Shown piece after piece: positions 27,135-56,200 of a stretch of DNA of 64,000 nt (position 1 is its first letter; the number at the start of each line of letters is the position of its first letter). The notes beneath the pieces were generated by a model. That model searched no databases. It worked only from the letters and a program-made list of their open reading frames with translations, and was not told the origin of the DNA. The translations under genes were made by a program, and so were the position numbers. Source of the stretch: Nitrosopumilaceae archaeon (GTDB taxonomy: Archaea; Thermoproteota; Nitrososphaeria; Nitrososphaerales; Nitrosopumilaceae); the NCBI GenBank assembly GCA_965208905.1, contig OZ242365.1:1920001-1984000 (forward strand), written 5' to 3'.

Positions 27135-27275
27135 ATACCAGAAGTTGGAAATAGCACCCACGTTTGCAGCAGAATCATGCGCGTGGGACTGTAACGTTAT
27201 TGGGTGGGTCGTCCCGACTGTAACAAACGGAGGGTCGTGTAACATCAGGGGGCGGGTACAATACTGCGCAATTTG

Positions 27276-27500
27276 TGAGCTAGTAACTAAACGTCGCGTT
27301 TAGAACCAGATGCCGCTGAGCGACAGATGTTGGTCATATGACCATCCAGAGGAGTTTCCAAGAGACGTTCATTGTCGGCCGGGTTTTGACGCCTAGCCTG
27401 GTGACAGCCTGTACCGGCCATCACGTCACCAACTACACTGGGAGGCGTAAGTGTCGCGAGATGTATCTTTCCTCTCAAGACCATTCCAGCCTTGTTTTGC
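27276..27500 (-). ncRNA. putative omegaRNA scaffold overlapping the tnpB 3' end (element A)
   Basis: Nested stems on the minus strand: ACGCCT/AGGCGT enclosing TGGTGAC/GTCACCA, the palindrome TGGTCATATGACCA, and the hairpin TGTCGC-TCA-GCGGCA just before the TIR. Boundaries are approximate. Confidence 0.55.
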
Positions 27501-28594
27501 AGTTCGTAAACGCCTTGAACGCGCTTACTCCACTGCACTATATAAAAAGCGAAAAGTATGTTGAATGCTGCATTTACGTCCGCATGACACGATACACCGC
27601 AGTTATGGCACCTAAACTTACTACCCTTGCGCCACGTGTTTGTACTACCACACATACAGCACTGTTTTGAGGTGTTCTTTGGGTTTACCTCGATATATTC
27701 TACATTATGTTGTAGGGATTGTTGCGCAATATGGTTACGCGCCTTGCCGCACTGACTTTGTCGCATCAATCTATTCTTGTTTTTCTGACCTTCACCTTTA
27801 CTTGTCATGGTTTTGAGATTCATACCCTCCATGATGATTTTATCACACTGTCTCATTAGTTTCTTGGAGAACTTGCGCATCTTGTCCATCTGTCGATTTC
27901 CCAACTTACGGTATATGCTGTTTAGTGTATCATGCAGTCCGCGCCACTTGTGGGAGTGAAGTTTGCAACGCGACATCTTTTTCTGTATACGCGCTATGTT
28001 GCGCAGTGTGTCTTTCTCGCGTAGTGTAAGCATAGCAATTGTACCATCGGACTTTCCCACAATAAGCGTGTGCTTGCCGCCCATGTCTATACCAGCATGT
28101 ACACCGGTACAGACGCGGTCCGGGACATGCTCGCGTATCGTTACATGTAGTTCAAACTGCCGTTCCTTATCAGCATGGTTCGTAACGTCTACAATCTTGT
28201 ATGATTGTGAGTCTGATGGTAGCCTACCTTTCTGTAATTTGAATGGAATACTACACTTTGGGAAGTATACTACATCACCTTTGGACTTTTTACCCAACGG
28301 CACACTACTATACAGGGGATAAACCTCCCTGCCATACCTCACATAACTACAGTCTTCCATCTTGTGACCTTCCCGTATGGCGCCGCGAGCCCAGGCCTGG
28401 GGGATTGTTCGGCATTTGGTGGCCATCTTATTGGTGTCAAATTCCGACATACCAGCACGACGAGCCTCAATTCCCGCATTGAGCCACATATGGGATTCAG
28501 AATACATTGAGTCAAAATATCGAGTGAGTTTGGTTGATGTCTTGAGACGGTACAGTAGAGTCCTAACAACGTACTTTTCGCCTTTATACTTCAT
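27287..28594 (-). CDS. tnpB: TnpB family RNA-guided endonuclease, catalytic triad intact
   Basis: RuvC-I GIDMGG, RuvC-II IIMEGM, Zn finger CCMC/CHNC, RuvC-III HADVNAAFNI. The TAG stop lies inside the TIR. Confidence 0.93.
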   Translation of the reverse strand: MKYKGEKYVVRTLLYRLKTSTKLTRYFDSMYSESHMWLNAGIEARRAGMSEFDTNKMATKCRTIPQAWARGAIREGHKMEDCSYVRYGREVYPLYSSVPLGKKSKGDVVYFPKCSIPFKLQKGRLPSDSQSYKIVDVTNHADKERQFELHVTIREHVPDRVCTGVHAGIDMGGKHTLIVGKSDGTIAMLTLREKDTLRNIARIQKKMSRCKLHSHKWRGLHDTLNSIYRKLGNRQMDKMRKFSKKLMRQCDKIIMEGMNLKTMTSKGEGQKNKNRLMRQSQCGKARNHIAQQSLQHNVEYIEVNPKNTSKQCCMCGSTNTWRKGSKFRCHNCGVSCHADVNAAFNILFAFYIVQWSKRVQGVYELQNKAGMVLRGKIHLATLTPPSVVGDVMAGTGCHQARRQNPADNERLLETPLDGHMTNICRSAASGSKRDV

Positions 28595-28615
28595 GTGGTA
28601 TAATGAGTTCGGTGG

Positions 28616-28623
28616 TATTTAAG
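28616..28623 (-). promoter_or_regulatory. TATA box of tnpB (leaderless-type spacing)
   Basis: CTTAAATA lies 22-29 nt upstream of the ATG. The same CTTAAATACC...ATTATA-NNN-CATG layout precedes the second tnpB. Confidence 0.6.
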
Positions 28624-28700
28624 CGGTGTATTTGGTAGGTTTGTTTGCTCAACTAACTACAGTAGGCTATGATTGAACGCGACGTTTAGTTACCAACTCA

Positions 28701-28920
28701 GCAATTTACCAAAATAGGGAGGAACGAGCACAAAAAGCACCAGAAGAAAAGGATCTGGTACAACAGCAGATGGATGGTTGAAATAATAATATCCTCGTTC
28801 AAGAGGCTACTGGGCGAGGTTCTCCGGGTGGTAAAACCTGAGTATATGATTATAGGGATTGCTACAAAGATAGCCGCGTATAACAAAACTCAAGACATTA
28901 TGCGCAAGGCCACGGCGTGA
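28701..28920 (+). pseudogene. IS5 family (IS903-like) transposase C-terminal fragment, interrupted by element A
   Basis: Reads QFTKIGRNEHKKHQKKRIWYNSRWMVEIIISSFKRLLGE...KIAAYN. The frame joins GGGYNTAQF (27248-27274) across the TSD. Confidence 0.75.
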
Positions 28921-28944
28921 GGCGGACAGAACTCCGTCTCACGC
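28915..28944 (+). terminator. 12-bp stem-loop at the end of the IS5 fragment
   Basis: GCGTGAGGCGGA-CAGAAC-TCCGTCTCACGC with one G.T pair. Function not established. Confidence 0.4.
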
Positions 28945-28947
28945 GGT

Positions 28948-29373
28948 TTGGTATTCGCATGGCGACTGGACCGTCCAGATCGCGTCAGGTCACGAATTAT
29001 GAAACGCTGTCAGCCCACCGTAAATGACAAGCATAAGGGAGAGGGAGGCGCAAAGCCCGTATATGTAAAGTTTCCCGATCAGCCAGTCATGGAAGTGAAA
29101 TCCTGGACTGCCGTTCACACCAAAGCGATTGAGTGGTTGATTGATACCGGCAAAATCAGCACAGACGAGCAGATAACCATCAAGAGAGGATGGGTGTTGT
29201 ACACGTCAGATGAAGAATATGCAAAGAAGTTCTCCGCACATAAAAAGACTGGGCATGGGTGGTTTGAGTGCAATCGTAGTAGTGAAAACCATATCGATGA
29301 CATTACCAAAATATTTGAACATGCAGGTGTGGACATGGATTTCAAAATCACTATCCGACTAAATGAGGCTTAG
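28948..29373 (+). CDS. hypothetical protein
   Basis: Open frame with protein-like composition. Start uncertain (possibly 28999). Confidence 0.6.
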   Translation: MVFAWRLDRPDRVRSRIMKRCQPTVNDKHKGEGGAKPVYVKFPDQPVMEVKSWTAVHTKAIEWLIDTGKISTDEQITIKRGWVLYTSDEEYAKKFSAHKKTGHGWFECNRSSENHIDDITKIFEHAGVDMDFKITIRLNEA

Positions 29374-29687
29374 ATCTCTGCTTTCACTCTAGGCGCCTAT
29401 TACACAACAGGTATGATATTTGAAACCGCCCCCGGTATTCATATTCCATACCGGTCATGGCTAAGTCACAACTCTAATCAATAGATTTAAGCGGCGCGTA
29501 TTCAAAACAAAGAACCACATACAGTTAAGGCACATGTATTATCGGTAGAATCGCTTCAGAATTATACACGTTGTTTTCGTCAACGGTCGATATAAAAGCG
29601 TCCTGTTGTAATACAACGGCAGCGTCCGTATATGACAAGTTATGAGACGTTGCATTAAGTCGCAGGACCTGGCCAGAACAAGACAGG

Positions 29688-50779: not shown

Positions 50780-50834
50780 GTTGATATTTTACAGTACGTA
50801 TTTTTAATTCTAGTGATGTTGTGTGTAATAGATA

Positions 50835-51944
50835 TAGTTAGGTGCATAAATAACCCGACACCAGTTTTACACCGGTAGGATTTTGTCTAAATTTCTGAAC
50901 AGAATGCTGCGCGGATCAAACTTTATTTCCAGCGACTCGTATATCCGCATGATTTTCCTCCGGAAATATCTCTTGGCAGGTCGCTTGAAAGTCCGCCGTA
51001 TCCTTGCCTTGCCGTTGAGCCACAGCCATTCGGCCGGATTCAGAAATGGTGAGTACGGCGGCAGAAATATTAGTTTGATGAAATCACTATTCTTTTTCAA
51101 GTATCGCTTTACGCGGCTAGAGTTGTGATATGCAGCATTATCCAGTATTACGGCAACCTTGCCGAACCGTTTTTTCGTCTTGTTCAAATATCTGATAAAG
51201 GACCTGTCGTTGGCCTTGCTAGCGGCCATATAGCATGTCTGCCCATCTAGCGTGATGCCACCGTATATGGTCTGGCGCTGGTTGCCGAGTGGCGTTTGTA
51301 CCGGTATGGCATCACCGCGTGTATAGACTGCGCCGCTGCCAAACATACTTAAATTTTGGTGGCTTTCGTCTACCATCACGAGTGTAAAACCGTCCTTTTC
51401 AAACATTTCTGCCTCCTTTTTGGTGTCTTTCTGCCAGATTTCGAGATCTTTCCTTGGTGGAATTCGGTCGGATATCCGGGGAGTCTTCCGTATAGTGAAG
51501 CCAAGAGACCTAAGGATACGGCGCGCTTGTGATTCGCTGTATTTTATGCCGGTCTTTTTCTCAGCCAGTTTAACAAATCCGTAGGCGGTAAATCGCTTGA
51601 CACCGTTAATTATGTTCTCTAATGTGTGGCGCGGTACGAAAGATGGACGGCCAGGCCTCGCACCATCGGCGAGGCCATCCAGGCCTTTGTGGTCGTAGGC
51701 ATTAAGCCAATCATATATGGTGCTACGATCGACACCAAGCACATCCGCTGCCGCAGAGATGGTATATCCTTTAATGCGCACCATGTTTACGGCTACGATA
51801 CGGGCGTGCTGTGTCGCACTCTTAGTCTGTTTTAGGGCAGCCTTTATTTTTTGGGCATTAGTTTGGTTATTCATATAATTAGTTAGTAATTTTGATCATT
51901 TATGTATTTCTAATAGAGTGTAGGATTATTTATGCTCCCAACTA
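50835..51944 (-). mobile_element. IS630 family element, intact copy 3 (1110 bp)
   Basis: 19-bp imperfect TIRs with TA duplication at 50833-34 and 51945-46. Confidence 0.96.
50867..51874 (-). CDS. IS630 family transposase
   Basis: N-terminal HTH and DDE triad VDES / LDNAAYH / LNPAE. Confidence 0.96.
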   Translation of the reverse strand: MNNQTNAQKIKAALKQTKSATQHARIVAVNMVRIKGYTISAAADVLGVDRSTIYDWLNAYDHKGLDGLADGARPGRPSFVPRHTLENIINGVKRFTAYGFVKLAEKKTGIKYSESQARRILRSLGFTIRKTPRISDRIPPRKDLEIWQKDTKKEAEMFEKDGFTLVMVDESHQNLSMFGSGAVYTRGDAIPVQTPLGNQRQTIYGGITLDGQTCYMAASKANDRSFIRYLNKTKKRFGKVAVILDNAAYHNSSRVKRYLKKNSDFIKLIFLPPYSPFLNPAEWLWLNGKARIRRTFKRPAKRYFRRKIMRIYESLEIKFDPRSILFRNLDKILPV

Positions 51945-51997
51945 TACACCCACCAGCAGAAAAACATCTATTAAACAATCATCTCTTTGTGTATGGA

Positions 51998-52606
51998 GTG
52001 GACAGAGAGATAGAGAGGGTATTACAGAGTCTTGATGAGACATCTCGTCTTGAGAACTCTCGCGCAGTAACCGTACCGGCAGGAGAGCTGATGTCTGCCA
52101 TAACATGGGATACTGGAGTGTTCTTTAACATATTGTTAAGAGGCATGAGGGCAAAGAACGTCTTGGAGATAGGAACATCAACTGGCTTCTCCACCATATG
52201 GCTAGCAGAGGCCATACATGATGGTAGTGTTATAACCATCGAGGCCAACTCAAAGAAGAGGAGTCGAGCCCAGGCAAACTTCAAGAAGGCAGGACTTGAA
52301 GGGCGTATAAAGATACAGTCAGGTGATGCGCAGGATGTATTAAACAGCATGTCATCGTCTGGCGAGTATAATCTCTTCTTTGACTTTGTACTGATAGATG
52401 CGGATAAAGAGAACATACCCCTCTACTTTGATATGGTACTGCCTATGATCAGGGTTGGTGGCATAATTGCCACTGACAATATGACGTACCCAAAAAAGTT
52501 TACTCACATGATGGAGAGATTCGCAAAGTCTGTGCGCCAAAACCCCAGAGTTAGAACTGTAACCATACCGATAGGAAACGGGGAAGAGTTGACCATTAAG
52601 ATATAG
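51998..52606 (+). CDS. class I SAM-dependent O-methyltransferase (YrrM/COMT-like)
   Basis: LEIGTSTGFS, FDFVLIDADK and ATDN motifs. Likely GTG start at 51998. Confidence 0.9.
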   Translation: MDREIERVLQSLDETSRLENSRAVTVPAGELMSAITWDTGVFFNILLRGMRAKNVLEIGTSTGFSTIWLAEAIHDGSVITIEANSKKRSRAQANFKKAGLEGRIKIQSGDAQDVLNSMSSSGEYNLFFDFVLIDADKENIPLYFDMVLPMIRVGGIIATDNMTYPKKFTHMMERFAKSVRQNPRVRTVTIPIGNGEELTIKI

Positions 52607-52620
52607 TCATACAAAAGATA

Positions 52621-52765
52621 TGGAATTATATACAAAAGTACACAGCCTCGGCTGTACACTCATGCCTTTTCTGACGGCTTTTTTGTATACAGTGGAGCAT
52701 AGAAGGTGTTGGCTTGTAGCCCTCCTTATGCCCCGGCCGTCTTAGGACGACGTTCCCCGCCGCCC
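52621..52765 (-). ncRNA. putative omegaRNA scaffold overlapping the tnpB 3' end (element C)
   Basis: Minus-strand stems: GACGGC/GCCGTC enclosing GGGCATAAGGAGG/CCTTCTATGCTC and GGCT/AGCC, then hairpin GTGTACAGCC-GA-GGCTGTGTAC running into the TIR. Confidence 0.55.
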
Positions 52766-53362
52766 TATACAGAATATTCCAGGCGGCATTAACATCCGCG
52801 TGGAATACCCTGGTACAATTTGTGCAAATGAATTTGTCGCGTGATATACGCGACTCTGAATCTACGTGACCACACACATGGCACGTCTGGCTCGTATATT
52901 TGGCCGATGCCCCCAACAGCGGCATGTTGTGCATCTCACACCACTGCGCAAGCTTGCGCAGGAACTCCCCAACATGGTTCTCCCGCATTGAACGGTTCAT
53001 AGCGCGTTTGTAATTCCCACCATGTGTGGTCATATCCTTTACGGAGAGCGACTCGACCACGACTGCGTCCACGCCATTAGTTATCTGCGCAATCGTCTGA
53101 TTTATGGTGTTCGCAGCTATGTTGTTGGCCTTCCTGTATAGCCGCTTAATCTGATCATTCAATATATGCCACTTCCGGCCATGCCGTGTCTTGCGGTCGC
53201 GCAAACTCTTTAGCGCGTCAATCTCCCGCAGGATTGCTCTATGGCGGGTGTTGTGTATTGTAACGTTGCCGTCCGTATCTACCGTGACGGCGAGATGCTT
53301 GCCGCCCACATCAACGCCACGCATTACACCCGTAGTATGGTGCGACTCTACCGGTTCATGTA

Positions 53363-54472
53363 TAGTTAGGTGCATAAATAACCCGACACCAGTTTTACAC
53401 CGGTAGGATTTTGTCTAAATTTCTGAACAGAATGCTGCGCGGATCAAACTTTATTTCCAGCGACTCGTATATCCGCATGATTTTCCTCCGGAAATATCTC
53501 TTGGCAGGTCGCTTGAAAGTCCGCCGTATCCTTGCCTTGCCGTTGAGCCACAGCCATTCGGCCGGATTCAGAAATGGTGAGTACGGCGGCAGAAATATTA
53601 GTTTGATGAAATCACTATTCTTTTTCAAGTATCGCTTTACGCGGCTAGAGTTGTGATATGCAGCATTATCCAGTATTACGGCAACCTTGCCGAACCGTTT
53701 TTTCGTCTTGTTCAAATATCTGATAAAGGACCTGTCGTTGGCCTTGCTAGCGGCCATATAGCATGTCTGCCCATCTAGCGTGATGCCACCGTATATGGTC
53801 TGGCGCTGGTTGCCGAGTGGCGTTTGTACCGGTATGGCATCACCGCGTGTATAGACTGCGCCGCTGCCAAACATACTTAAATTTTGGTGGCTTTCGTCTA
53901 CCATCACGAGTGTAAAACCGTCCTTTTCAAACATTTCTGCCTCCTTTTTGGTGTCTTTCTGCCAGATTTCGAGATCTTTCCTTGGTGGAATTCGGTCGGA
54001 TATCCGGGGAGTCTTCCGTATAGTGAAGCCAAGAGACCTAAGGATACGGCGCGCTTGTGATTCGCTGTATTTTATGCCGGTCTTTTTCTCAGCCAGTTTA
54101 ACAAATCCGTAGGCGGTAAATCGCTTGACACCGTTAATTATGTTCTCTAATGTGTGGCGCGGTACGAAAGATGGACGGCCAGGCCTCGCACCATCGGCGA
54201 GGCCATCCAGGCCTTTGTGGTCGTAGGCATTAAGCCAATCATATATGGTGCTACGATCGACACCAAGCACATCCGCTGCCGCAGAGATGGTATATCCTTT
54301 AATGCGCACCATGTTTACGGCTACGATACGGGCGTGCTGTGTCGCACTCTTAGTCTGTTTTAGGGCAGCCTTTATTTTTTGGGCATTAGTTTGGTTATTC
54401 ATATAATTAGTTAGTAATTTTGATCATTTATGTATTTCTAATAGAGTGTAGGATTATTTATGCTCCCAACTA
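53363..54472 (-). mobile_element. IS630 family element, intact copy 4 (1110 bp), inserted in tnpB
   Basis: Same TIRs, TA duplication at 53361-62 and 54473-74. Protein identical to copy 3. Confidence 0.96.
53395..54402 (-). CDS. IS630 family transposase
   Basis: Same 335-aa translation as 50867-51874. Confidence 0.96.
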   Translation of the reverse strand: MNNQTNAQKIKAALKQTKSATQHARIVAVNMVRIKGYTISAAADVLGVDRSTIYDWLNAYDHKGLDGLADGARPGRPSFVPRHTLENIINGVKRFTAYGFVKLAEKKTGIKYSESQARRILRSLGFTIRKTPRISDRIPPRKDLEIWQKDTKKEAEMFEKDGFTLVMVDESHQNLSMFGSGAVYTRGDAIPVQTPLGNQRQTIYGGITLDGQTCYMAASKANDRSFIRYLNKTKKRFGKVAVILDNAAYHNSSRVKRYLKKNSDFIKLIFLPPYSPFLNPAEWLWLNGKARIRRTFKRPAKRYFRRKIMRIYESLEIKFDPRSILFRNLDKILPV

Positions 54473-55112
54473 TATGGCAATATGCAGCTCAAACATGTGG
54501 TCTGATGGTTTGGTATGCTTGTCCACCCGTTTGGTGACATCAACTATCTTGAATGAGCGCATGTCCCATGATGTATTGATGGGCTTGGCGGTCTCCACCG
54601 TACCATATCCGGGGATATGTACTGTATGGCTATCTTTCCGTACAGGCGGTGTAACGGAACTAAGTATGATGCGGCCGTCTTTGCGGCGGTATGGCGCATG
54701 GCCGGAGTTGTCATCCATGACTCTCCTACACGCGACGGAGGCATCCTGTATGGCGCCCCTGCCAAACACCATAGGCAAGTCAGATACCCATGCATGTTCA
54801 GCGCGCCACTCCGTAAGCTACTTGAACATGCCGTACTTTAATGCCATCTTTGACGGCCCAAAATCATATGTATGGTAGTCATCGTCCAGCATACCTGATG
54901 TAAAATCCAGCTTGCCCGGCAGTTTGAAGGGCTGCAGGATGTCCACTACCACCCTCTCCATATATTCGCCACCAAACAAATACTCTGATACGGCGCGGTT
55001 GTACACATATCTTGACGCATGATTCGTGCGGTGCACCCACTCCGCGAACCGCACATCCCTCCGTAGCGGCACCTTAACTATTTGTATCATGATATATAAT
55101 ACGGTATACTGG

Positions 55113-55120
55113 TATTTAAG
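55113..55120 (-). promoter_or_regulatory. TATA box of the second tnpB
   Basis: CTTAAATA lies 23-30 nt upstream of ATG 55090. Confidence 0.6.
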
Positions 55121-55263
55121 GGGAGTTGTATGGACGCGATCCGTGGTTCAGGCATTAACTCTCAGAATCGGGGTTGTGTACTTTTGTATATAATTCCCAA
55201 AAGATACTACAAAACGCAGGTGGATTAAGCTTTTAGGATGTAATTTGTACAATATGTAACATA

Positions 55264-55638
55264 ATGGTCACCCGAACAGAGTACCTTCAAAGCATGCTCG
55301 AAAAGATACAGGGATCGTACAATGTCATAAATGGGCTAAGCGACAAACCTGGTGACATCACCATCATCCGACTAGAGTTACTCCGGGCAAAGGGCATAAT
55401 GCAGGTGGTAGTCAACAAGATAAATCCACGAGATTATCCAAATGTCGATATTCCAGGCCTTGTATCACGATTGTCCATATTTTTGGATGGCTATTACTTT
55501 GAGAGGGAGTTAGATATAATGGAGCCATTATACGGCGATGATCCTGGAAGAATTCGGCATCTACGCCTAAAAATACTAGATTCAATGCGAAGTAAAGATT
55601 TAACAGTGAAGATAGAGGAGATCCTCTCGGAGCTATAG
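55264..55638 (+). CDS. hypothetical protein
   Basis: 124-aa helical ORF. Confidence 0.75.
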   Translation: MVTRTEYLQSMLEKIQGSYNVINGLSDKPGDITIIRLELLRAKGIMQVVVNKINPRDYPNVDIPGLVSRLSIFLDGYYFERELDIMEPLYGDDPGRIRHLRLKILDSMRSKDLTVKIEEILSEL

Positions 55639-55641
55639 ATT

Positions 55642-55749
55642 ATGAAGTGTGTCATATGTGGGTGTAAAGATCATAGACTCATCGGTTGTGCTCGACATTT
55701 TGCAAAAAAGTGTAGCTGTTATGCCGACGGGAACCATACCGACAAGTAG
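55642..55749 (+). CDS. 35-aa Cys/His-rich small protein (not in ORF track)
   Basis: MKCVICGCKDHRLIGCARHFAKKCSCYADGNHTDK*, starting 3 nt after the upstream stop. Confidence 0.5.
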   Translation: MKCVICGCKDHRLIGCARHFAKKCSCYADGNHTDK

Positions 55750-56200
55750 GCGACATCCAATGCTTGGAGGTCTGGCCATACGTTTTTTGGTGTGGCAACA
55801 TAATATCATGCCGTCTTGAAGACATCACAGTGAAAGTGATCTATTAAGACACACCATCATACAACAGTAATTCTAGCTCGACCTCCAGCGTTTATTTACA
55901 GCATCATAAACTACAGCATATTCAGATGATTCTCTTGTGGTAATCTCTTTTTTTGTACATCTTGGTCCACTTAGAAGGGTTAGGGTCCTCAAATGAGCTA
56001 TGTTTGCCATCTAGAAATTTTTCTCTCCGTCCATACACTGTTTGTGGGACCAAGATGTGCTCACAATACATCTTGACCATACTAGGTTGAAGGTTGAGTT
56101 GTACTATATGGACTGTTCCATACGTACCATGTGATTTTTTGTTTATTATATTGTGTATTGATGTTCGGTCTTATTTTAGTACAACCTACTCTACCAACTC

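Follow-up and report, generated by a model that had tools for sequence, protein, structure and literature searches.

The window, the whole stretch of 64,000 nucleotides that was analysed, contains at positions 52621–55198 an element whose edges are defined by inverted repeats and by an 8-bp duplication. The two repeat arms (52622–52650 and 55169–55197) are 29 nt in length and complementary at 27 of 29 positions (93%). They include an inner 23-mer that is perfect at both element ends and has exactly two occurrences in the window, where 100 shuffles gave an expectation of 0. One extra terminal base at each end also belongs to the element, i.e. a t at 52621 and a c at 55198; since other copies of the family read g...c at these positions, the true element end is GGGAATTAT. 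The flanking target duplication, AAAAGATA, is perfect in its two copies (8/8).

The single native gene of the element is tnpB, which is encoded on the minus strand. Its stop codon, TAA at positions 52626–52628, lies inside the repeat, at a distance of only 5 nt from the end of the element; all 14 intact copies of the family show this too. A hairpin at the same end merges into the repeat. The first-pass annotation had described an element bounded by terminal inverted repeats (TIRs), with a perfect 8-bp duplication, tnpB as sole native gene, a stop codon within the TIR and a hairpin running into it, and each part of that description is borne out. Table 1 lists the positions of the features.

Table 1. 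Features of the tnpB element and its flanks (positions in the window).
Feature	Position	Strand	Basis or remark
Right-end terminal inverted repeat, includes the tnpB stop codon	52621..52650	-	repeat comparison
Left-end terminal inverted repeat, upstream of tnpB	55169..55198	+	
8-bp target-site duplication AAAAGATA, copy on the tnpB 3' side	52613..52620		
8-bp target-site duplication AAAAGATA, copy on the tnpB 5' side	55199..55206		
Sense-strand (tnpB) G immediately 5' to the upstream duplication	55207	-	putative TAM position of the empty site
tnpB 3' part, codons 206–450 and stop	52626..53363	-	RuvC and zinc-ribbon motifs
tnpB 5' part, codons 1–205	54476..55090	-	premature in-frame TAG at 54818–54820 (codon 91)
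Secondary insertion, IS630-family, 1112 bp, after codon 205	53364..54475	-	TA duplication
TTAAATA, TATA-box-like	55113..55119	-	~22 nt upstream of the tnpB ATG (55088–55090)
Right-end-specific hairpin, 3' arm formed by the inner part of the inverted repeat	52632..52665	-	alignment columns 206–239
Predicted omegaRNA scaffold, overlaps the tnpB 3' end	52621..52850	-	extent approximate
Predicted guide segment, right-end-side duplication copy and 12 nt of flank	52601..52620	-	from position, immediately 3' to the element end next to tnpB

The C-terminal part of the gene product (nt positions 52626–53375) matches the OrfB_IS605 profile (PF01385) with 36.6 bits and the Cas12f1-like_TNB profile (PF07282) with 62 bits, i.e. 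both the RuvC domain and the zinc-ribbon domain of a TnpB are present. An intact copy of the family gives 35.7 and 57.6 bits with these two profiles, respectively, and 123.3 bits with the NCBIfam guided_TnpB model (cut-off 100). In an alignment to PDB entries 9yyg and 8iaz, the RuvC D/E/D residues and the zinc ribbon of the intact copy are seen as gvDvG, vvvEsl, hADvNAA and ChvC..CtnC. Because the triad and the zinc ribbon are kept, the TnpB of this family is probably an active RNA-guided nuclease. The window copy retains the RuvC and CxxC motifs, but its gene is truncated.

The window copy is dead, having sustained a nonsense codon and later an insertion of an IS630-family element. The inserted element has a 335 aa transposase (open reading frame at 53395–54402) that matches DDE_3 and scores 162 bits against NCBIfam IS630 (cut-off 100). 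It is identical to the copy at 50833–51946, and 12 full copies are present in the genome, 5 of them identical. Among the reads and contigs compared with this locus, no empty-site allele was seen. X12 carries the same insertion, since its flank contigs stop within both repeats; in X8, the shorter side of a junction without the IS630-family insertion spans just 22 nt, and other copies are a possible source of this junction.

Upstream of tnpB, a block at the TATA-box-like motif, CCTTAAATACC, is conserved among diverged copies. The motif, read against the archaeal promoter consensus, suggests that tnpB may have its own near-leaderless promoter.

The family has 17 copies in the genome, and the full-length copies display 78%–97% identity to the reference copy. 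Because none exceeds 97%, the last movement of the family in this genome was not very recent. An intact open reading frame of 450–451 aa is found in 14 of the 17 copies. The 8-bp duplication is perfect in 12 copies, with 12 different duplications at 12 loci, and has a single mismatch in one other copy; the target duplications are AT-rich. There are also short derivatives of 372–641 bp that lack tnpB and show the same ends and duplications, and remnants consisting of the right end only (164–200 bp) are present elsewhere in the genome.

Two related genomes, G005 and G015, have family copies with the same ends. In G015, which represents another genus, the same repeat surrounds a divergent TnpB of 543–550 aa. 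Homologous tnpB copies with ends other than TIRs would, according to the first-pass annotation, refute its reading; this objection does not apply, as the family copies, including those of G005 and G015, do have these ends.

The genome, which is 99.57% complete, yields 75 TnpB matches, and a search of it shows no match to Y1 TnpA (PF01797) or to serine recombinases (PF00239). None of the 41 genomes searched has a Y1 TnpA above the cut-off. Four IS1595-family transposase genes are present in the genome (PF12762, 140–142 bits), one of which scores 176.7 bits with NCBIfam IS1595 (cut-off 75). The four elements that carry them have GGGAATTATA ends, 8-bp duplications (8/8) and passenger genes; the passengers are N6/N4 DNA methyltransferases, some of which also have an HNH domain. 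These elements share with the repeat of the tnpB family only the first 10–13 nt. In the congener G005, the repeat of an IS1595 element (L048, duplication AAATAAAG) matches at 21 of 24 nt. The duplication length and the terminal GGG are the same in both kinds of element. The other refuting condition of the first-pass annotation, that no DDE transposase shares these TIRs, does not apply either: transposase-bearing elements share the outermost nucleotides in this genome and 21/24 nt in the congener.

Elements of the ISNwi1 group of IS1595 have ends of the type ggnnatTAT and produce 8-bp duplications, and passenger genes are common in them. The GGGAATTAT end of the tnpB element fits this ggnnatTAT pattern, and the sibling elements carry passengers.

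An IS1595 transposase is present in 12 of the 41 genomes searched, and all 11 genomes with at least 8 TnpB matches also have one, counts that overstate the support for an association as the related genomes are not independent. G004 has IS1595 transposases and 0 TnpB matches. No element with both an IS1595 transposase and tnpB was found. The single IS1595 transposase gene of G015 shows no GGGAATTATATAC end in the surrounding 4-kb locus (1.5 kb on each side), and convincing inverted repeats were not found around the weaker IS1595-like genes L013–L015, L018 and L019. In G017 and G032, two genomes that have no IS1595 transposase, a simple scan around TnpB-size open reading frames in the loci gave 10–11-nt repeats at chance level or none. 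No transposase partner for the tnpB families with GGTTCC ends is present among the end pairs found.

Two segments bounded by GGGAATTATA-like ends, L059 (4178 bp) and L060 (6771 bp), were rejected as elements because host genes lie inside them, i.e. a formate/nitrite transporter in L059, and DNA ligase and others in L060.

With respect to classification, the element has the 8-bp duplication and shared ends of IS1595 and no transposase of its own. Because only tnpB lies inside, it is classed as a non-autonomous derivative rather than a genuine IS1595 insertion sequence. It does not belong to IS200/IS605 (IS1341 group), whose elements are moved by Y1 TnpA, as repeats and duplications are present, Y1 TnpA is absent, and the score with the IS200_TnpB model is 70.5 bits (cut-off 425). 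Nor does it belong to IS607, a family that has a serine recombinase as TnpA and lacks both repeats and duplications: the genome has no serine recombinase, and the IS607_TnpB score is 87.1 against a cut-off of 350. The feature is likely a dead copy of a non-autonomous, ISNwi1-like element of the IS1595 family, with tnpB and a presumed omegaRNA as its cargo, that would have been moved in trans.

In the TnpB tree, the types of repeat come out as polyphyletic. TnpBs with GGGAATTATA ends form three separate clades, and a tree that forces them together is rejected (p-AU 0.0033). The earlier proposal that DDE transposons captured TnpB recurrently gains support from this, although end swapping between existing elements is expected to give the same pattern.

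A right-end hairpin that uses the inner repeat is present in every lineage examined, and in most lineages the left end has none. In other lineages the right-end hairpin is arranged in the same way, with sequences that are lineage-specific. The last 250 nt and the flank of the family copies have a mean column identity of 90%, and synonymous differences are roughly halved over the last 75 codons of tnpB. Double changes are seen in 4 of 68 predicted base pairs, the family sequences being too alike, and the alignment becomes poor (62% column identity) after addition of the G015 and G005 copies. An Rfam scan of positions 52000–56000 at E ≤ 1 yielded no match.

One metatranscriptome contig, which is unstranded, covers positions 52284–52716 across the right-end junction with 1 mismatch. 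It could equally result from transcriptional read-through out of the adjacent methyltransferase gene, or from DNA carry-over, and paralogues may be the source of the RNA contig cover over the body of tnpB. The guide sequence quoted in the first-pass annotation is the exact reverse complement of positions 52601–52620, and its role as a putative guide is assigned by position.

The flank on the tnpB 5' side displays a strictly conserved base. The G next to the upstream duplication is present in 13/13 copies in this genome that have a duplication of at least 7/8, and in 6/6 copies from G005 and G015, i.e. in 19 of 19 independent insertions; elsewhere in the flank the family shows no strict conservation. 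Of the three copies that lack a duplication but can be oriented, only one has the G. At the same position, cluster C2 has TA in 7/7 and cluster C4 has TT in 6/6 (TT[G/A/T]), so that two clusters which both have GGTTCC ends have different flank motifs. There is no mirror motif, a C following the right-end duplication in 3 of 13 copies. When the five transposase-bearing IS1595 elements are oriented by their gene, the G is seen inconsistently, in 2 of 5.

These features can be placed in a proposed sequence of events. An IS1595-family DDE transposase encoded by sibling elements with the same GGGAATTATA termini would bind the ~24-bp terminal inverted repeats of the tnpB element and, acting in trans, insert it with formation of an 8-bp target duplication. 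The omegaRNA would comprise the last ~150–230 nt of the element and close in the hairpin, whose 3' arm is the inner repeat, with ~13 single-stranded nt (GUAUAUAAUUCCC) after it. If the transcript runs on into the flank, the guide would consist of the duplicated 8 bp and the downstream flank, and the target that it matches would be the unoccupied allele. On the tnpB 5' side, the base or bases that immediately precede the duplication would then be at the required TAM position, and their conservation is specific to orientation and to clade. TnpB-dependent homing may follow, or retention of those insertions that by chance landed beside a TAM.

A tentative generalization, in which we have rather less than even confidence, is that in this archaeal lineage TnpB and its omegaRNA may serve as a homing or retention device of IS1595-type DDE transposons. 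The fresh duplication together with the flank would act as guide, and only insertions beside a clade-specific TAM (..NG for the present family, TTA or TTG for two further clades) would convert empty alleles and persist, which would leave the oriented flank signature. In a bolder variant, TnpB might steer the orientation or the site of DDE integration.

The flank signature has another possible source, namely the preference of the transposase for certain target sites, or that of a transposase–TnpB complex at integration, in place of a TAM used for homing after integration. The motif directly adjoins the 8-bp staggered-cut site, and the AT-rich duplications do show some target preference. A DDE transposase that acts on two near-identical ends should however prefer palindromic sites, and the mirror C is infrequent (3/13). 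In addition the motif differs between TnpB clades that have one repeat type (C2 and C4), and the G is present in only two of the five elements that carry the transposase itself. This explanation is conceivable but appears doubtful. It is unlikely that the mobilizing enzyme is a DDE transposase outside IS1595, in which case the common GGGAATTATA tips would be convergent or ancient. Several IS families make 8-bp duplications, the identity to IS1595 elements of the same genome is limited to the 10–13 terminal nt, and the clusters with GGTTCC ends have no transposase-bearing partner among those found. Against this stand the 21/24 match between the repeat and that of a true IS1595 element of the congener, the duplication length and terminal GGG common to both kinds of element, and the co-occurrence of TnpB expansions with IS1595 transposases among the 41 genomes.

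TnpB itself has a RuvC/RNase H fold, and it could be asked whether it is the transposase behind the repeat-bounded insertions and their 8-bp duplications. Most copies (14/17) have kept the open reading frame intact, no transposase gene is present in cis, and G015 yielded no IS1595 gene flanked by ends that match. However, TnpB is dispensable for transposition in the IS200/IS605 elements whose study is described in a review (PMC13565253), the 372–641 bp derivatives have the same ends and duplications without tnpB, and a genuine DDE transposase is encoded by sibling elements whose tips are the same; such a role for TnpB is highly improbable. The element also resembles an ordinary IS1341-type tnpB element of IS200/IS605 in having tnpB as sole gene with the open reading frame near one end, and its repeats and duplication would then be accidental. 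This is refuted by the copy family and can practically be dismissed: the 23-mer had no chance match in 100 shuffles, the perfect duplications differ at all 12 loci, Y1 TnpA is absent, and the IS200_TnpB score is far below its cut-off.

Associations between TnpB and DDE transposases are described as rare in prokaryotes, and of unclear benefit, in the 2026 review (PMC13565253). What cut-and-paste DDE transposons gain from TnpB or Fanzor is an unsettled question. The genome analysed here is a compact natural system, with its many TnpB matches, many diverged intact copies and no Y1 or serine transposase. Its tnpB clusters with resolved ends show inverted repeats and 8-bp duplications. The genome also has sibling IS1595 transposase elements with matching tips, and a flank motif is seen at the putative TAM position. 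The role of TnpB in DDE transposons is therefore directly testable in it. With trans-mobilization as proposed, IS1595 would join the DDE families found with TnpB. The homing or retention reading, if true, would provide a prokaryotic model for Fanzor-type nucleases in cut-and-paste transposons. It should also be noted that the label “IS200/IS605 family” on an element with tnpB only can misstate its mode of movement.

The element resembles the ISNwi1 group in the 8-bp duplications, the ggnnatTAT-type ends (GGGAATTAT) and the presence of passenger genes. It differs in that the tnpB element has no transposase and in that the passenger is an RNA-guided nuclease, whose open reading frame and predicted RNA run into the repeat. 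Like IS1341-group elements, it is multicopy, has tnpB as its single gene and has a presumed omegaRNA over the 3' end of that gene. Unlike IS200/IS605 elements, which are described as having neither inverted repeats nor duplications (PMC13565253), the element has both, in a genome without Y1 TnpA.

Among eukaryotic elements, Fanzor1 and some Fanzor2 are likewise described as TnpB-family nucleases within DDE transposons bounded by repeats and duplications (PMC3627910, PMC10711439), and a guide RNA that reaches the transposon end or the duplication is described for Fanzor (PMC10711439). The differences here are the archaeal host, the compact TnpB of 450 aa and the IS1595-type partner.

TnpB branches associated with DDE transposases, DDE-1 to DDE-6, are described by Altae-Tran et al. 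(2023, PNAS; PMC10691335), who also report solo TnpBs whose flanking ends are almost the same as those of elements with a transposase, a similarity that suggested trans-mobilization. These branches are similar to the present family in having TnpB within inverted-repeat transposons and the 3' end of TnpB near the transposon end. In the present case no element with both genes was found, several TnpB clades have one end type in common, and an oriented motif is seen at the putative TAM position. The partner family here is IS1595, a name that occurs 0 times in the main text of PMC10691335, the supplements of which may hold such a branch; PMC13565253 names ISL2, IS630 and IS1031 as DDE families with TnpB. 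DDE-linked TnpBs with inverted ends have thus already been published, and the IS1595-type partner is the variant found here.

The tnpB element in the window is bounded by inverted repeats (29-nt arms, 93% complementary by repeat search) and is flanked on either side by the perfect 8-bp target-site duplication AAAAGATA. The inner 23-mer is identical at both ends, is found in no other place in the window, and gave 0 matches in 100 shuffles. One extra terminal base per side is part of the element (t and c in the window copy, g and c in other copies); the element end is therefore GGGAATTAT. The sole native gene is tnpB. Its C-terminal open reading frame (249 aa) scores 62 bits against Cas12f1-like_TNB and 36.6 bits against OrfB_IS605, and its stop codon, TAA, is within the repeat, 5 nt short of the element end. 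RNAalifold predicts a terminal hairpin (alignment columns 206-239), the 3′ arm of which is the inner repeat. The repeats, the duplication, the single native gene, the stop codon inside the repeat and the hairpin joining it had been described in a first-pass annotation, and these observations are confirmed.

The window copy is dead, being doubly inactivated: codon 91 is changed from CAG to an in-frame TAG, and a 1112-bp IS630-family element (NCBIfam 162 bits, cut-off 100) with a TA duplication is inserted after codon 205. The inserted element is 100% identical to a second copy in the window; the genome has 12 full-length copies, five of them identical. The end of the second copy overlaps the called start (51932) of an O-methyltransferase open reading frame, and may disrupt or supply its 5′ end or promoter.

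Positions of features, in the window or, where marked G000:C1, on the contig of the same genome
Feature	Position	Strand
tnpB element	52621-55198	minus (tnpB)
Inverted repeat arms	52622-52650; 55169-55197	
8-bp duplication	52613-52620; 55199-55206	
C-terminal tnpB open reading frame	52626-53375	
In-frame TAG	54818-54820	
IS630 element in tnpB	53364-54475	
Second IS630 copy	50833-51946	
O-methyltransferase open reading frame	51932-52606	
Terminal hairpin	52632-52665	
Metatranscriptome contig	52284-52716	
Element A	~27275-28701	
tnpB of element A	27287-28594	minus
IS1595 elements with methyltransferase passenger (examples)	G000:C1:1043578-1046414; 1770047-1772736	
tnpB elements with GGTTCCTCCCGCAA ends (examples)	G000:C1:239554-241169; 28035-29550	
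Identical C7 tnpB elements	G000:C1:1455264-1456902; 2049469-2051107	
MITE-like elements (372 bp; 430 bp)	G000:C1:341419-341790; 759618-760047	
Right-end-only remnants	G000:C1:1493807-1494006; 1694379-1694542; 2197133-2197325	

In the genome (one contig of 2.21 Mb, 99.57% complete) the end motif occurs at ≤3 mismatches 22 times in forward and 19 times in reverse orientation, and the reversed pattern, used as a control, 0 times. When the ends are paired, the family (cluster C1) numbers 17 elements, among them one 641-bp internal-deletion derivative and two of a variant sublineage; the 16 full-length copies display 77.8-97.0% identity to the reference copy. The proposed genome-wide search for intact tnpB copies with the same ends was positive: an open reading frame of 450-451 aa is intact in 14 of the 17, with the stop always 5 nt from the end. 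Perfect 8-bp duplications, each distinct and AT-rich, flank 12 copies; one other copy shows 1 mismatch and four show 2-6. Alignment with solved TnpB-like structures shows the RuvC D, E, D residues and a CxxC..CxxC motif in the intact protein. This protein passes the NCBIfam model guided_TnpB (123.3, cut-off 100) and is below the cut-offs of IS200_TnpB (70.5 vs. 425) and IS607_TnpB (87.1 vs. 350). Two MITE-like elements with GGGAATTATA-type ends and no long open reading frame have perfect 8-bp duplications (TAAATTTA and AATAATTT).

A scan of the genome with the TnpB zinc-ribbon model yields 75 matches, and scans for Y1 TnpA (PF01797) and the serine recombinase (PF00239) yield none; the latter two models do match control genomes. 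Four full genes for IS1595-family transposases are present in the genome (PF12762, 140-142 bits; the one scanned with NCBIfam gave 176.7, cut-off 75). The four elements that enclose them measure 2131-2837 bp, all with GGGAATTATA ends and flanked by perfect 8-bp duplications; their repeats agree with those of the tnpB family over the first 10-13 nt. A 3869-bp element (L048) in G005, a genome of the same genus, has the duplication AAATAAAG, an IS1595 transposase (PF12762 124.4 bits; NCBIfam 163.2), a methylase-HNH passenger and an IS630 insertion. The L048 and tnpB repeats agree at 21 of 24 positions. Thus a search for IS1595 transposases sharing the ends, as the first-pass annotation had advised, was positive in both genomes, and the interpretation given there is supported. 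The element is best read as a non-autonomous IS1595-type carrier of tnpB. Two results count against this reading: no element with both an IS1595 transposase and tnpB was found, and the single IS1595 gene of G015, from another genus, is without matching ends in the 4-kb locus around it.

Elements of the ISNwi1 group of IS1595 have ends of the ggnnatTAT type and carry passenger genes. Three of the four IS1595 elements have an open reading frame whose start resembles an N6/N4 DNA methylase, the Pfam match (PF01555 and HNH) being taken from the homologous passenger of L048. The G005 passenger is a fusion of a methyltransferase with an HNH nuclease domain, and such passengers may be mobile orphan methylases or restriction-like modules.

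Of 40 related genomes, four contain the 24-mer repeat (≤3 mismatches): three congeneric ones and G015, where it bounds a divergent TnpB of 543-550 aa whose end (...VYFCI) is likewise within the repeat. The IS1595 transposase is above cut-off in 12 of 41 genomes and Y1 TnpA in none of the 41; the 11 genomes with at least 8 TnpB matches are all within those 12, although kinship makes such counts non-independent, with approximately three lineages bearing the signal. G004, of the same genus, has 7 IS1595-transposase matches and 0 TnpB matches; its nine congeners have 8-75 TnpB matches. One locus in G028, from another family of the order and with an IS1595 transposase, displays this design too, with a 26-nt GGTTC.. 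repeat, the duplication AAAGAGAG and a 372-aa open reading frame that may, by its size, encode a TnpB.

The 69 TnpB open reading frames of the genome form ten groups by DNA similarity. GGGAATTATA ends are present in clusters C1, C5 and C7, and GGTTCCTCCCGCAA ends with 8-bp duplications in C2 and C4 (at least 7 of 8 duplication positions agree in 17 of 26 end pairs). C3, which includes element A, the other repeat-bounded tnpB of the window, has other ends, with 8-bp duplications in at least three members. A maximum-likelihood tree of the 58 open reading frames of at least 400 aa (11 shorter ones left out) has the topology ((C6,(C8,C2)),((C5,C4),((C7,C3),C1))). With groups set by end type before the tree, the AU test rejects C1, C5 and C7 as one clade (lnL difference 42.9, p-AU 0.0033), with the caveat that long branches meet in the tree. 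The combination of end type with TnpB clade has therefore changed several times. Such a pattern is in keeping with the recurrent TnpB capture proposed earlier, which gains from the rejection of one clade for GGGAATTATA-ended TnpBs, but exchange of ends fits as well.

About 25 tnpB elements of the two unrelated clades C2 and C4 have GGTTCCTCCCGCAA ends, and no transposase-bearing partner with such ends was found among the end pairs. Element A has a perfect 18-nt repeat, GTAACTAAACGTCGCGTT, continuing outward with mismatches, and a 7/8 duplication (AAATTGC core) adjoining it; the stretch around it is GC-rich (0.565). The ends of the other C3 members differ from those of element A. Two identical C7 elements in the same orientation are separated by 594 kb. 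One of them (1455264) has on its left flank the 8-mer TAATTTCC, which flanks the other on the right, and the inner flanks differ; this suggests rearrangement between the copies.

The last 250 nt of the tnpB element, which take in the predicted omegaRNA region, are the best conserved (90% mean column identity). Synonymous differences fall from ~0.2-0.37 in mid-gene to 0.12-0.14 over the last 75 codons, and the last 25 codons show much non-synonymous change. One pair of the terminal hairpin is compensated in the variant sublineage. C1, C1b, C5, C7, G015 and G005, with differing inner repeats, each form a hairpin of their own sequence at the right end (the tnpB 3′ side), stopping ~6-13 nt before the element end; the left end is mostly without one across lineages. 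Three right-end-only remnants (164-200 bp, 89-90% identity) contain only the predicted omegaRNA region and repeat, with no left end nearby, and have either arisen by decay or serve as guide-RNA modules on their own. A 433-nt unstranded metatranscriptome contig spans the right end with 1 mismatch; read-through transcription of the methyltransferase gene, or carried-over DNA, may account for it. The guide predicted in the first-pass annotation is just the 20 nt past the right end.

The most interesting lead is an oriented motif at the position that a target-adjacent motif (TAM) would take. With each copy oriented by tnpB, the base immediately 5′ of the upstream duplication is G in 13/13 genome copies whose duplication agrees at ≥7/8 positions, and in 6/6 copies from G005 and G015, all at distinct sites (background G frequency 0.229). 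It is G in 1/3 oriented copies without a duplication, and the mirror position past the downstream duplication is C in 3/13. The same flank position reads [T/A]TA in 7/7 C2 copies and TT[G/A/T] in 6/6 C4 copies (TTA- or TTG-like). Should the duplication and flank serve as guide and the empty allele as target, a TAM would be required at exactly this place. The right end (..TTCCC, ..GAACC) is without the motif, and the occupied site would thus be safe. Our reading is that the motif reflects TnpB-dependent filtering, through homing or retention; the main rival is oriented target choice at integration.

A literature search by title and abstract yielded no paper on TnpB together with IS1595 and none on TnpB in Cenarchaeum, and ISNwi1 appeared only in unrelated papers. 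A 2026 review names ISL2, IS630 and IS1031 as partners of TnpB and calls its associations with DDE transposons rare (PMC13565253). Altae-Tran et al. (2023), in the main text, make no mention of "IS1595" (PMC10691335), in which respect the present elements differ. That text describes six branches of TnpB that are associated with DDE transposases and have inverted terminal repeats throughout, together with solo TnpBs whose ends are almost the same as those of elements bearing a transposase. The general phenomenon is therefore already known.
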